NCBI GenBank assembly: GCA_049325335.1
Contig: JBMOMC010000043.1
Span: 309,852 to 373,851, forward strand
DNA length: 64,000 bases
Source: Nitrospirota bacterium
GTDB lineage: Bacteria; Nitrospirota; Nitrospiria; 2-01-FULL-66-17
Reading direction: 5' to 3'
Of the stretch, positions 20,201 to 26,200 are shown piece by piece (position 1 is the stretch's first letter; the number at the start of each line of letters is the position of its first letter). Made by a program: the position numbers.

Positions 20201-23200
20201 GGCGGCCGGTGAGCGGGGATCTGGGGAAGTCGTCGGACATGGTCGGATTCTATCCCAGGCAGAATCGGCATTCAATCATCGAATCAGAAGTGGCGTTCGT
20301 CGCGGTGCCTTCCAGGTTTGATTCGGGCTTCCGGCCTGGTATGATGCTCGCGTGACCGTGAAGAAGCGAAAACGGAAGCCACCCACCAAAGGGTCGGGCC
20401 GAGGGAGTGGGGCGTCGATGAGCAAGCAGGACGCGCGGGCGTTCGTGCGTCGGTGGGCCTTGGTGAATGCGCGGGAGATCGAGGAGCTGCGGGCCACGCC
20501 GCCCGATCAGAAGCTCCGGCAGGTGGCCGTGCTCATGGCATCGGTTCGTTGGACATGAAACGCATCCGACATTGGGTGAAGGAATTCGCCGCGGTCTTGG
20601 AGCGTCCGGAGATGATGACTGATCTTGAACGACTCTTGCGTTCCAATCGCAAGTAATGCCGCAACCCTCGCATTGCGTCACCTCATCACTTCGCCATACG
20701 AGTAGCCGCCTTTGTCACAGGCGCGGTTCTGTCTCGCGCCGGTTTCGTTGACTTCACCCAGGCCCTTTGCTAGCATCGCGCCCTATGCTTTCCCCGGAAA
20801 TTCAGGCACTTCTAGATGGGCTTCATCCGCTCGAAGCGCGGGTGTTTCGCGCGTTCGGCGAGCAATCGTCCGCGTCCGAGGCCGCGTTGCGCGAGGGCAG
20901 CGGGATGGCGACGTCGCAGTTGTCTATGGCGCTGGGGTGGTTGCTGACCAAGGGCGCGGTGCGGGTGGAGAGCGAGCGGGTGACGCGGCGCGCGGCCCTC
21001 GCTGAGGCGGGGAAGCGCTATGCGACCAATCTGATCCCTGAAATTCGGATTCTCAATTGGCTGGGCGAAGGTCAGCGCCTGACCGTGGGGGATCTGCGCG
21101 CGAATCGCGGCCTTGAGCCCGACGAGGTCAGCGGCGCGGTGGGCGCGCTCAAGGGCATGGGCGCGATTCGCATCGTGGAAGGCGGGGTGCTGCATGCTGT
21201 GGCCGACGTGGATGTGAGCCATTTGTTGACGCTCCAGCGCGAGATCGAAGGGCTGGAGCATGTGGGCTCGCGGGTGATGAGCGAGCCGCCGACTCCGGCT
21301 GATCAGCTCGTCGAGCAGCATTTCACTAAGCGGGGCAAAGCCAAGGGCATTTTCCGCATCGACGAGGAGACGGAGCGAACGTTCGCGCTGACCGAGGTTG
21401 GCGCTGCGCTCGCCAAGGCCGTACGCGAGCGTGGACTCGGACTCTCTGAAGAAATTTCTCAGCTCACGCCTGACTTACTGAAGGACGGGGCGTGGCGCGG
21501 CAAGGCGTTTCGCAAATACAACATTGGATTGCGGCCCGCGCGCGTGTTCGGGGGGCGCAAACATCCGTATCGCGCGTTTCTCGACGAAGTGAAGACGCGG
21601 CTCGTGTCCATGGGCTTTGAGGAGATGCGCGGACCGCTGGTCGAGAACGAGTTCTGGGACATGGACGCGCTCTTCATGCCCCAGTTTCATCCCGCGCGCG
21701 AGATTCACGACGTGTACTTTGTGCGTGAGCCGCGCGAGTCCACGCCCATTCCGCAACCGTTTGCCGGCAACGTGGCACGGGCGCACGAGAACGGCAAGGG
21801 CACGGGCTCGACGGGCTGGCGGTACCCGTTCGACCCCAGCCGCGCGCGGCGACTGGTGCTGCGCAGCCAGGGCACGGCGGTGTCGGCCAGGACCATGGCG
21901 GCCAAGCCGAAGATCCCCGGCAAGTACTTCTCGGTTGCCCGCTGCTTTCGGTACGACCAGGTCGATGCCACGCATGCCCCGGACTTCTTTCAGGTCGAGG
22001 GCATTGTCTTGGGCGAGGACATGACGTTTCGTACGCTCTTAGGGCTGTTGCGATTGTTCGCAGTGGAAGTCGCGCGAGCGCCCGAGGTGAAGTTCCTGCC
22101 CGCGTACTTTCCGTACACGGAGCCGTCCGTGGAGATGCACGCCAAACACCCGACGTTGGGGTGGATGGAGTTGGGCGGGGCCGGTTTGTTTCGCCCCGAA
22201 GTCACCTTGCCGCTTGGGGTGAAGGTGCCGGTCATTGCCTGGGGGTTGGGGCTGGATCGTATGGCCATGACTGCGTTGGGGTTGTCCGATATCCGAGATC
22301 TCTTCACTCCTGATCTTGAAACGCTGCGCGTGCATCGCGCGACGGTCACTCTGTAGGAGGCTGACGATAAACGACTATCTGCTGCGTTGGCGCTGCGCTT
22401 CCGCTCCTCACGTACGCATACAGTACGCTCCGGTGCGGTTCTCGCGCCGCCTTGCATCTGGCACGTTTCTCGCCCGCCTCGATTTGCATCGAGCCTAGAA
22501 TTATCTGCTGCTGACATGCCGACGATAACTGTCCTCAAGTCCGATCTGGAATCGCTCGCCGGAAGAAGGTTCTCGCTCGATCAACTGTCCGACGCGCTTG
22601 CATTGGTCAAAGGCGAGTTGAAAGAGCATGTGATCGCGACCAATGAGCTGCGCATCGAGCTGAACGACACCAACCGGCCTGACCTGTGGTGCGTGGAGGG
22701 GATCGCGCGGCACTTGGGAACGCCTAAGGCTGGCAAGTCGGCTCGATCTAAAGCAGTGCCCGCAAAGGGCACGTACCGAATCCGGGTGACGAAGGACGTG
22801 CGTACGGCGCGGCCCTACCTGGGCGCATGTGTGGCGCGGGGCGTGGGCGTGACCGACACATTGCTGACGCAGTTTATCCAGACGCAGGAAAAACTCGCCG
22901 AATTGTACGGCCGCAAACGACAGACCGTGTCTATTGGCCTGTACCCGTTACAAAAGATCGTGTTCCCGGTGTCATACACCACGGCCGCCCCGGATGAGGC
23001 GAGCTTTGTCCCGTTGGGTGCGGACAAGGTCATGACGTTGCGCGAGATTTTGGTCCGACATCCCAAGGGCGTGGCGTACGGGAAGATTCTCGCAGCTTGT
23101 ACGCGCTATCCGTTGTTGGTGGATTCGCGCGGAGAGATCCTCTCGTTCCCGCCCATCATCAACAGCCAGGCGTTGGGCGCGGTGGCGGTGGGCGATGACG

Positions 23201-26200
23201 ATCTGTTGGTCGAGGTCACGGGCACGGATCAGCGCATGGTGGTGCTGGCGGTCAACATCTGGGCGCAGAACCTGCGCGATCGCGGTGCGCGCGTGGACCC
23301 GGTGACCATCGAGTACGCCTGGGCCACGCCCATGGGGCGCAGGGTGGTCACGCCAAAGGAAATCGCCAAACCCGTGTCGGTACCGGTGCAATTGATCGCG
23401 CAGGTCCTGGGTGAAGCAATCAAGCCGGCCGAGGCCAAGCGGCTCCTGACCGGCTACGGCCATCGGGTTGCTGGTTCGGCCACGACCATAAAGGTCACCC
23501 CGCCCGCGCACCGCGACGACATCTTGCACCCAGTGGACGTGGTGGAAGACGTGGCGATCGCGCGCGGCTACAACTCGTTCGCGCCCGAGATGCCGAGCCA
23601 GTTTACGGTCGGCTCGCTCTCACCGATCGAGCGGTACGCGGATCGCGTGCGCGAGTTGTTGGTCGGTCAGGGATTTCAAGAAACGATGGCCAACATCCTG
23701 ACCTCACGGCAGGACGTGGTGGAGCGCATGGGCGGTGGTCGGACTGGTGAAGGGCTTGTCGAAGTCGACAACCCCATGGTGGAGACATTTGCGGTGCTGC
23801 GTCCGAATCTGCTGGCGTCGTTGTTGCGCGTGGAGGCCGCCAGTTCCAAAGCCGTGTATCCGCACCGCGTGTTCGAGGTCGGTGAGGCCGCGAGTATTGA
23901 TCCTGCGTCCGAGGTGGGCTGCCGCACCGAGGTGCGGGCCGCGGTCCTGATCTCGCACGCGGAGGCTGCGTTCTCGGAAGCCCACGCCGCACTGGAAAGC
24001 CTGGCCTACGCGTTGGGCGTGTCGTACCGCTTGGACCCCACCCCCCACCCGAGCTTTATCGAAGGCCGCGCCGGCACCATCATGCTCGGCGACCGCCCCG
24101 TCGGCGTCATCGGTGAAATCACGCCCTCCGTGCTCGAAGCCTGGGGCATCGGCATGCCGTGCGCGCTGTTCGACCTCTCGGTCGATTCCTTGCTGCCTCA
24201 ATCATAAAAAAGAGAAAGGGCGCGTATGCGCCCTTTCTCTTCAGTCCACGACGGTAAGTTGCTGTTTACGCCGATGCGGTCTTGGTCTTGGCTTGGCTCA
24301 CGACTTTTGAGAACCCGGTCGGATCCGCGATCGCCAAGTCGGACAGCACTTTGCGGTTCAGCACGATGCCGAGGTTTTTCAGCGCGGCCATGAACTGGCT
24401 GTAGGACAGGCCTTCCGCGCGGACGGCCGCGGAGATTCGGGCGATCCACAGCCGGCGGAAGTCGCGCTTGCGGGCACGGCGGTCGCGGAACGCGTATTGC
24501 CGGCCTTTATCGACCAGTTCGGTCGCGGTGCGGAAGAGCCGGCTCTTCCCGCCGTACGCACCCTTGGCGAGTTTCAGGCGCTTGCGGCGCCGTTCCTTGG
24601 TTTTTGGTCCACCTTTGACACGAGGCATTTGGTACTCCTTTCTTCAGTCAATCGACCCTGCGGCCTAGGTTTTCCCCACGCCGTACGGGAGTAAGCGTTT
24701 GATCATACTTTGTTCCGCAGGCTCCAGCACCACGGACGTGCTGTAGCTGCGTTTGCGCTGCGCGGTCTTGTGCGACAGAAGGTGGCGGTTGCCCGCGCGC
24801 TTGCGCGAGATCTTGCCGCTCCCGGTGGTTCGGAAACGTTTGAACGCACCCCGGTGGGTTTTCATTTTGGTTCCTGTTTTCGGCATTCGACGTCCTTTCC
24901 TCTGCGGCCGGCTTGCGCTCCGGCCGATCTCGTTCTGGTTGGAGCGCCCCCGTCAGCCGTGCTTCGGCGCGAGGAGGATGCTCATGTTGCGCCCTTCCAT
25001 CCGCGGTTGTTGTTCCACCTGCGCCGCGGAACCCAGTTGCTCGATCATCTTCCCCAGCACCGTGCGCCCCGCGTCCTGGTGAGCCATTTCCCGGCCGCGG
25101 AACATCACGGTGATTTTGACCTTGTGCCCCTCGGCCAAAAAATCCTTCACGTGGCGGGTCTTGAATTCCACGTCGTGGGTGTCGGTAAAGGGGCGCAGCT
25201 TCACCTCTTTGAGTTGCGTCGCCTTTTGTTTGGCCCCCTGCTGCTTCTTTGACTGCTCGTAACGGTACTTGCCGTAGTCGATGATGCGACAGACGGGCGG
25301 GACGGCCGTCGGCGACACTTCCACGAGGTCCAAACCCGCTTCCTCGGCGCGTTTGATCGCATCGCCGATCGGCAGGACCCCGATCTGCTCGGAGTTGGGG
25401 CCGATGACCCGCACCTCGCGGATTCGAATTTCCTGATTCACCCGGTGTTTTACTGCGATAGACGGCCTCCTTTGATTAACGCGGGCGCGATCACGCCCGA
25501 CCCTTGGACGGTTGCGCGGTGGATGGACCGGCGACCCGCGCGCGAATTTCGGTCTCGATGTGGTCCGCCACGGCCGCGACCGCTTGGGCCGGCAATTCTT
25601 GCCCGTCGCGCCGGCGCACCGACACGGTGCCGGCCGCGGCTTCGCGATCGCCGAGCACCAGCATGTAGGGAATCTTGGCCAATTGGGCTTCGCGGATCTT
25701 GAGACCGATCTTTTCGTTGCGGCCGTCGAGCTCGGCGCGGATGCCGCGGCCGGCGAGCGCCGCGAGGACCTCGCGCGCATAGGGGTGCACGCGGTCCGCG
25801 ATGGGCAACACAATGGCCTGCGTGGGCGCGAGCCACGTGGGGAACGCGCCGCCGTAGTGCTCGATCAACACGCCGAGGAACCGTTCTAGCGAGCCCAACA
25901 ATGCGCGGTGGATCATGATGGGCTGGTGGTCCTTATCGTCCTCGCCCTTGTAGTGCAGGCCGAACCGATCCGGGAAGTTGAAGTCCACCTGGATCGTGGC
26001 GCACTGCCACGAGCGCCGCAGCATGTCCTTGATCTTAATGTCGATCTTCGGTCCGTAGAACACGCCCTCGCCAGGATCAACCTGATACGGCAAGCCCTTG
26101 GCGCGCAACGCGCCTTCCAGCGCCGACGTGGCTAGGTCCCAGCGCTCCAAGGCGCCCACGTATTTTTCGGGCCGGGTGGAAAGGTAAATGTCGTACTCCG

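Follow-up and report, generated by a model that had tools for sequence, protein, structure and literature searches.

The evidence points to a large branch of the Nitrospirota having exchanged its own phenylalanyl-tRNA synthetase (PheRS) for an archaeal-type enzyme of the spirochaete lineage, and thus to one old archaeal entry into bacteria followed by spread between phyla. The locus was studied in a window of 64,000 nucleotides, the whole stretch of DNA analysed, from one Nitrospirota genome (G000; other G numbers denote relatives, and f1, f2 and so on denote families). The whole account, comprising a sole housekeeping PheRS-A, a single archaeal entry, later movement between phyla and displacement of the native pheST, is given a probability of roughly 0.68.

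The alpha subunit (523 aa) is encoded by pheS (20785..22356, plus strand) and carries an N-terminal winged-helix-like region and an RSQGT signature, while the beta subunit (563 aa) is encoded by pheT (22516..24207, plus strand), has conserved editing-site residues, and lacks B2 and B8 (FDX-ACB). A Pfam search of the subunits found no FDX-ACB (PF03147), B2 OB-fold (PF01588) or Phe_tRNA-synt_N. A preliminary description had called these genes the only pheS and pheT of the genome and archaeal in type, and both points hold: PheS reaches 561.8 bits against NF003210, where the cut-off is 350, PheT reaches 450.9 bits against TIGR00471 pheT_arch (cut-off 282.65), and tblastn of both subunits against the whole genome returned this locus as the sole match. 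By the sizes and profile scores of both subunits the locus encodes PheRS-A, the archaeal/eukaryotic type, in which alpha is about 500 aa and beta 550-600 aa long. It does not encode the bacterial PheRS-B, as its beta subunit reaches 116.4 bits on TIGR00472 pheT_bact, under the cut-off of 402.65; that cut-off is exceeded nowhere in the genome (99% complete) and is reached in 10 of 14 controls. Standard annotation already names pheS and pheT correctly.

The alpha N-terminus gives weak MarR_2 and DUF2582 matches, both under cut-off. In a structural model of alpha residues 1-407 (pLDDT mostly 76-94 across 1-220; 3l4g_C is its best fold match, at E 1.8e-13 and a TM of only 0.35), this region is predicted to form winged-helix domains and not a coiled coil, as in PheRS-A. 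The class II catalytic residues R386, R389, F401, Q403, E462 and R492 are invariant across the Nitrospirota rows, and so are the editing residues Q124, R135, S210, N216 and T235 (22/22 rows), of which N216, together with S139, corresponds to the archaeal editing-site positions Asn217 and Ala141, respectively. Judged from these sequences, the sole pheST would supply the housekeeping PheRS, an (alpha-beta)2 enzyme charging a bacterial-type tRNA-Phe, with alpha activating phenylalanine and beta probably retaining the B3/B4 site for editing of Tyr-tRNA-Phe. In human PheRS, the N-terminal winged-helix domains of alpha hold the anticodon arm and, by analogy, these domains would most likely grip it here, where B8 is missing. 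An alpha loop reads YFPY here and YNPY in the human enzyme. The best sequence and fold matches belong to the PheRS-A family (AARS Online, PMC11580382; human 3L4G, archaeal beta fragment 2CXI), which likewise lacks B8.

The preliminary description also placed pheST tail to tail with thrS-infC-rpmI-rplT, and the two sets are indeed convergent, with the pheT and rplT stops 58 bases apart on opposite strands. On the minus strand lie rplT (L20; 24266..24628; TIGR01032, 151 bits), rpmI (L35; 24665..24886; an ORF of uncertain start, named from position and sequence), infC (IF-3; 24953..25459; TIGR00168, 221 bits; probable ATC start after GGAGG) and a bacterial-type thrS (25491..27449; TIGR00418, 720 bits). 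Separating the two stop codons is a hairpin of 15 pairs (24209..24242, no strand assigned) with a T tail on the minus strand; its 71-nt region folds at -30.4 kcal/mol (z -5.5, 0/200 shuffles), and it is a candidate intrinsic terminator of the minus-strand genes ending in rplT that plausibly acts in both directions. Upstream of pheS, a sigma-70-like promoter, TTGACT-17-TAGCAT (20748..20776, plus strand), is a consensus match only; the pheS ATG follows 8 bases further on, no Shine-Dalgarno sequence was seen ahead of it, and the transcript is probably near-leaderless. The spacing is identical in 2/2 genus relatives, and most f9 loci have a comparable promoter-like site 10-15 bases ahead of the pheS start. 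One copy of a REP-like dispersed palindromic repeat (22377..22463, ends approximate, plus strand) separates pheS from pheT, its core occurring 53 times genome-wide and 4 times within the window.

Bacterial PheRS-B, encoded in thrS-infC-rpmI-rplT-pheS-pheT, shares function and chromosomal neighbourhood with this locus, which differs in strand, in enzyme architecture and in having no Rfam match to a pheM leader or T-box near pheS. The idea of an in-place replacement is therefore kept only in part: what stands is that the native bacterial enzyme, encoded where thrS-infC-rpmI-rplT ends, was displaced long ago, while the incoming genes are outside the operon, face the other way and have a promoter-like site of their own. 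A recent transfer was ruled out, as the GC/GC3 of pheST (0.64/0.79) matches that of neighbouring genes (0.63/0.83).

Of 151 Nitrospirota genomes, 99 have a pheT above the archaeal cut-off and 47 one above the bacterial cut-off; no genome has both, and 5 are partial or absent cases. This matches the 40/61 first reported, and the type is again all-or-none by family, but the displacement is not phylum-wide, since the 47 bacterial-type genomes span 15/24 families. Bacterial-type pheST is co-oriented after rplT in 15/20 bacterial-type loci, and likewise in G007 and G091. Archaeal-type pheST is convergent with rplT in 20/40 archaeal-type loci, namely in f1 (2/2), f2 (6/6), f3 (3/3), f5 (1/1), f12 (3/5) and f13 (5/6), and not in f8 (0/5), f9 (0/11) or f4 (0/1, a short contig); the convergent arrangement is also found in 45/80 titled loci. 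Among the best 80 of 589 matches in a genome-collection scan, 79 are titled Nitrospirota and one "uncultured bacterium". Plasmid and phage collections gave no full-length match (80% cover in 0/57 and 0/14 records), and the ESM Atlas returned only family-level rows.

All 18 bacterial-type enzymes from Nitrospirota fall into a single clade (98); the f6 enzyme is among them, which rules it out as a later xenolog. Because these enzymes are monophyletic and most bacterial-type families retain an in-operon pheST after rplT, the displacement appears real, and bacterial PheRS was probably the ancestral native form. In the species tree, f1-f5, f8, f12 and f13 make one clade (99 with PMSF, 100 with LG). 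In their ancestor the archaeal cassette would have landed immediately downstream of rplT in the opposite orientation, after which the native in-operon pheST would have been lost; in f8 the genes may later have been relocated away from rplT. Family f9 has the archaeal type, yet the species tree puts it among bacterial-type families, although a single species clade including f9 is not rejected (p 0.056). Its enzymes nest among those of f4, f5 and f12 (93-95 in quick trees; 17-row group 95/96), so f9 most likely represents a second displacement from a source within the phylum, with the p values leaving alternatives.

One such alternative is that the archaeal cassette already stood beside the native pheST in the last common ancestor of the Nitrospirota and that lineages dropped one or the other. 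The position of f9 among bacterial-type families fits this, as do a non-rejected placement of f9 outside the other Nitrospirota enzymes (p 0.11) and an LG+G4 species tree with long outgroups, in which the root falls on f8 and the archaeal-type families become paraphyletic. The supplementary data of D'Angelo et al. (PMC10203281) can be read similarly: by row counts, and with the files mapped as they appear to be, the ancestral set has the same pheS/pheT clusters as the Nitrospiria-enriched set, which also counts against the displacement account. Such coexistence would nevertheless require several parallel losses, no genome (0/151) carries both types, and in the best trees the f9 enzymes sit among those of f4, f5 and f12, which leaves it improbable and marginally behind the separate transfers considered next.

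In the gene tree, a single 39-row clade (100/98) unites the enzymes of Nitrospirota and spirochaetes with five Eisenbacteria-affiliated ones; it was recovered in further gene trees and on beta alone (99), with two spirochaete beta rows, one of them partial; part of the gene-tree supports are SH-aLRT values from quick searches. Within it the Nitrospirota enzyme is joined with those of Treponema and Sphaerochaeta, apart from the archaea and together with five nameless rows (100/98), and AU tests reject a grouping of spirochaetes with the sampled archaea L144+L152 (p 5.6e-8) or L138 (p 0.021). The claim of a second phylum swapping independently from archaea therefore gives way, as the enzyme shares the spirochaete clade and a third phylum has the archaeal type. 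Nitrospirota monophyly is weak (29/50), and spirochaetes as sister to the f13 enzymes are not rejected (p 0.41). Separate transfers, in which each of the three phyla received its PheRS from related archaea, unsampled or among the nameless rows, would explain the star-like base of the clade and the five alpha-only rows inside it (P0125, P0126, P0128, P0132 and P0133), which carry no taxon name or context and could be archaeal; should they prove so, one entry into bacteria would not be shown. Archaeal PheRS also entered bacteria more than once, as a single clade of all bacterial PheRS-A copies is rejected (p 1e-78); a separate archaeal subtype occurs in 33/206 genomes of the Eisenbacteria-affiliated phylum. 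Against this, every member with a readable name or neighbours is bacterial, no archaeon identified by name or context lies inside the clade, and the shared stem is long (0.2-0.35), making separate transfers unlikely. Two of the five nameless rows group with spirochaetes (98/93).

When rooted on bacterial PheS, the shared clade nests within archaeal diversity. This nesting, the recurrence of the pheST-rplT order in many independent genomes, some within single contigs, and the composition given above argue against an assembly artefact and against an old paralog retained from before bacteria radiated; no point in favour of this reading was found, and it is very improbable. The single archaeal entry with later passage between phyla thus remains the preferred reading, the order and direction of the transfers being our reconstruction.

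Spirochaete PheRS (Spirochaeta, Treponema, Borrelia) has both subunits archaeal-type, as here, with lengths of 513-528 and 514-573 aa, and replaced the native enzyme in part of that phylum, according to the excerpted text of Andam and Gogarten (2011, PMC3191353), in which "nitrospir" occurs 0 times. The Nitrospirota enzyme has the same clade and RSQGT signature and differs in its phylum and its conserved convergent position at rplT. Its nearest named archaea in the sample are Woesearchaeota, not Thermococcales as for spirochaetes, in trees that include no verified Thermococcales sequence. A tentative extension, rather doubtful as a whole, is that one DPANN-near archaeal pheST was relayed by early Nitrospirota or clade neighbours to spirochaetes and the third phylum, that the spirochaete enzyme did not come directly from Thermococcales, that the transfer orders the origins of these groups in time, and that the inverted rplT cassette is a shared derived character of f13 (probably Leptospirillia) and Nitrospiria versus Thermodesulfovibrionia.

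The consequences for tRNA-Phe that had been anticipated are not seen in the tRNA genes, which stayed bacterial and rule out co-transfer or remodelling. The gene was recovered in 17 of 18 archaeal-type relatives searched, with U at position 20 in 15, C in 2 and never G; G000 has U. G20, expected in the tRNA-Phe partner of PheRS-A, counts among the identity elements of archaea and eukaryotes (PMC9976931); its absence is a feature of the tRNA, and the enzyme therefore remains within the PheRS-A family. The tRNA-Phe genes of G063 (f9, archaeal-type) and G012 (f6, bacterial-type) are identical and, because the same gene is served by PheRS-A and by PheRS-B in a sister family, G20 seems dispensable for this enzyme clade, and the swap would have required no tRNA-Phe change. 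The archaeal, probably DPANN-derived TyrRS and TrpRS of CPR bacteria are a parallel case in the excerpted text of Mukai et al. (2017, PMC5370408), in which tRNA identity turned archaeal, unlike the unchanged tRNA-Phe here.

A literature search found no text describing archaeal-type PheRS in Nitrospirota; the archaeal/bacterial split can be read indirectly from the supplementary tables of one paper. Through this finding, a textbook inter-domain transfer known from spirochaetes comes to include much of a well-studied phylum of the nitrogen cycle, and the two instances seem to represent a single lineage handed from one bacterial phylum to another. As the enzyme shares the spirochaete clade and the third phylum has it, the proposed archaea-to-bacteria calibration point becomes rather a constraint between bacterial phyla. 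Since pheS and pheT are both among 40 universal markers (PMC3798382) and this PheS also exceeds the general pheS model TIGR00468 (331.9 against a cut-off of 237.45), such a xenolog can slip unnoticed into concatenated trees. One tRNA-Phe gene faced with PheRS-A and PheRS-B in sister families provides a natural test of tRNA identity, and the inverted pheST cassette may help to position the unstable Leptospirillia.

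The sole PheRS of this genome proved to be of the archaeal type, as the preliminary description had claimed, and falls in the archaeal/eukaryotic form PheRS-A. The pheS gene (window 20785-22356) encodes a product of 523 aa, which scores 561.8 against the archaeal-type model NF003210 (cut-off 350), and pheT (22516-24207) one of 563 aa, which scores 450.9 against the archaeal-type model TIGR00471 (cut-off 282.65) and only 116.4 against the bacterial PheT model (cut-off 402.65). A Pfam search of PheS and PheT detected neither B2 nor B8 nor the N-terminal domain of bacterial alpha, and the whole-genome search revealed no second PheRS. 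Among solved structures the best matches are 2CXI, an archaeal beta fragment, and human 3L4G, chain C of the latter being the top fold match of a predicted structure of alpha residues 1-407, in which the N-terminal region is helical and confident and the truncated catalytic part poorly modelled. The GC and GC3 of both genes agree with those of their neighbours.

The pair converges with thrS-infC-rpmI-rplT, a strong hairpin separating the two sets, and a promoter-like site ends 8 bases 5' of the pheS start. A dispersed, palindromic REP-like repeat lies at window 22377-22463 and also at 9676, 14054 and 52244, with its core in 53 copies in the genome. On the minus strand 5' of pheS (window 19531-20240) are ORFs of 60 and 181 aa, possibly a toxin-antitoxin-like pair; the longer, without a match in NCBIfam or Pfam, is by motif presumably nucleotidyltransferase-like. 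The HU gene 5' of thrS is flanked by a class A RNase P RNA and a tRNA (window 28233-28612 and 27529-27600).

In a sample of 151 Nitrospirota genomes, among which related genomes are not independent, the archaeal pheT cut-off is passed in 99, the bacterial one in 47 and both in none; the genes are split, partial or absent in five (G016, G118, G125, G131 and G040). The division runs by family, f1-f5, f8, f9, f12 and f13 having the archaeal type and f6, f7, f10, f11 and f14-f24 the bacterial one. Nitrospirota-titled records, Nitrospira moscoviensis and Manganitrophaceae among them, make up 79 of the best 80 loci, a count on which the phylum assignment partly rests. By tree position f2 is read as Nitrospiraceae, and a match of our tree to the three clusters of PMC11033732 suggests that f13 is Leptospirillia, f9 UBA9217, f5 and f12 9FT-COMBO-42-15, and the short-beta families Thermodesulfovibrionia. 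Bacterial PheT is about 690 aa long in f7, f11 and f14-f24 (loci L074, L077-L090 and L404), the best model match beginning near position 157, and Pfam finds no B2 OB fold in that of L082. PheT of the f12 genome G033 (L056:7695-9710) carries three in-frame Pro/Gly-rich inserts of 25-52 aa resembling translated repeat elements, and in f13 (L109, L110, L111) the open frame of RpoB spans about 1730 aa, including about 480 added residues between model positions ~220 and 260-275.

The gene order of bacterial-type and archaeal-type loci differs. Bacterial-type pheST lies co-oriented behind rplT in 15 of 20 loci, the exceptions being three f6 loci, G030 and G006, whose contig ends too early to show the order; G007 and G091 are two further co-oriented cases. 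Archaeal-type pheST converges on rplT in 20 of 40 loci, 11 of them within 300 bases (f1 2/2, f2 6/6, f3 3/3, f5 1/1, f12 3/5, f13 5/6; none of five in f8, of 11 in f9 or of one, short, in f4), and over ~11.6 kb in the f12 genome G008. The 80 titled loci divide into 45 with the convergent order, 15 in which at least 3 kb of downstream sequence holds no rplT, and 20 that either lack pheT or cover too little sequence. The foreign pair therefore sits in the native pheST slot in inverted orientation. In f8 and f9 the genes 3' of rplT are unrelated ones, with no pheS remnant within 1.5 kb. Family f6 has a conserved ORF of 152-153 aa between bacterial pheS and pheT (L071:9927-10388, L072:9541-9999, L073:9429-9890), hydrophobic in its N-terminal half and without a Pfam match.

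Eighteen Nitrospirota bacterial-type enzymes form a single clade (98) against 20 others and thus look vertically inherited. In a tree of nusG, rplK, rplA, rpoB and rpoC, f1-f5, f8, f12 and f13 are set apart by a branch with support 100; rooted with outgroups, none of them close, they form a clade (99 with a mixture model, 100 with LG and 31 rows), while LG with 52 rows and long outgroups places the root on f8 instead. Family f9 stands among the bacterial-type families in the species tree, adjoining f6 (87-91), and groups with f4, f5 and f12 in the gene tree. Constraining all archaeal-type families to one species clade is borderline (p 0.056), and an f9 enzyme outside the other Nitrospirota enzymes is not rejected (p 0.11). 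One main gain with a second displacement in f9 is favoured; that the archaeal-type and native pheST were instead differentially lost among Nitrospirota lineages is less likely.

Alpha+beta trees unite Nitrospirota with spirochaetes (L137, Sphaerochaeta-like, and L183, Treponema, as named by their relatives), with five genomes from another phylum and with seven unnamed rows in a single clade, whose support is 100 in two trees and 100/98 (two branch-support values) in the finished 51-row tree. This clade also appears from beta alone (99; only two spirochaete rows) and alpha alone (95), includes five alpha-only members without domain assignment, and is nested in archaeal-type diversity when rooted with bacterial PheS; rows were hand-picked, omitting fragments and near-duplicates. 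Of the archaea with names, a Woesearchaeota cluster (P0151) comes nearest to the clade, two unnamed rows being closer. The base within the clade is star-like, and Nitrospirota monophyly is weak (29/50), yet not rejected (p 0.55). Constraint tests rejected grouping the spirochaetes with L144 and L152 (p 5.6e-8) or with L138 (p 0.021). The donor of spirochaete PheRS proposed in PMC3191353 is only loosely tested thereby, because L144, which resembles 2CXI (370 bits), is not a verified Thermococcales sequence.

The view of Nitrospirota as merely the second phylum after the spirochaetes did not hold, since a third, Eisenbacteria-affiliated phylum also has PheRS-A. Its member G151 falls outside Nitrospirota, among FCB-side outgroups of the species tree. 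Archaeal PheT occurs in 11 of 81 genomes of this phylum (a total counting G170, marked as unpublished, as one bacterial-type genome) and archaeal PheS in 39 of 206. Six of these 39 are near the Nitrospirota type (51-66% identity), and the five placed in trees have no rplT nearby. The remaining 33 match it less well (36-50%). The ten examined (L311-L321; G234, G211, G166, G226, G168, G205, G206, G230, G176 and G208) belong to another subtype, which has RTHTT or RTHNT and carries, near the N-terminus of beta, a CxxC..CxxC insert that may be a zinc-ribbon; their relatives bear the names Ca. Eisenbacteria and, in one case, Eremiobacteraeota. This subtype is present in up to 33 of the 206 genomes. 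A constraint giving the bacterial copies a common origin is rejected (p 1e-78); PheRS-A therefore came into bacteria on two or more occasions.

The catalytic residues, like those for editing, are conserved in 21-22 Nitrospirota rows, N216 and S139 aligning to Asn217 and Ala141, editing-site residues of P. horikoshii according to PMC3275996 and PMC4263187. G20 is an identity element of archaeal and eukaryal tRNA-Phe and U20 of the bacterial one (PMC9976931). In the 28 of 30 genomes searched that yielded a tRNA-Phe gene, all 17 of archaeal type have U or C at position 20 and all 11 of bacterial type have U, and the genes of f9 (G063) and f6 (G012) are identical. Because of this, the archaeal-type PheRS is predicted to serve an unremodelled bacterial tRNA-Phe, which it would probably recognize via the anticodon and A73.

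No description of archaeal PheRS in Nitrospirota was found in the literature searched, outside subscription journals and bioRxiv supplements; 'Nitrospir' does not occur in the accessible text of PMC3191353, PMC4427996, PMC5370408, PMC11580382, PMC3798382 or PMC8662615. The main text of PMC10203281 mentions neither tRNA nor phenylalanine, and its supplementary tables hold separate pheS/pheT clusters in file 3 versus files 4 and 5. By their row counts, files 3, 4 and 5 appear to be its basal-enriched, Nitrospiria-enriched and ancestral sets; the split would thus be implicit there, in a reconstruction that would lean to presence in the ancestor. The archaeal-type PheRS of Nitrospirota is a real and old xenologous displacement, to which the present analysis adds that the spirochaete enzymes share its clade, that its inverted position is conserved and that the tRNA has not changed.
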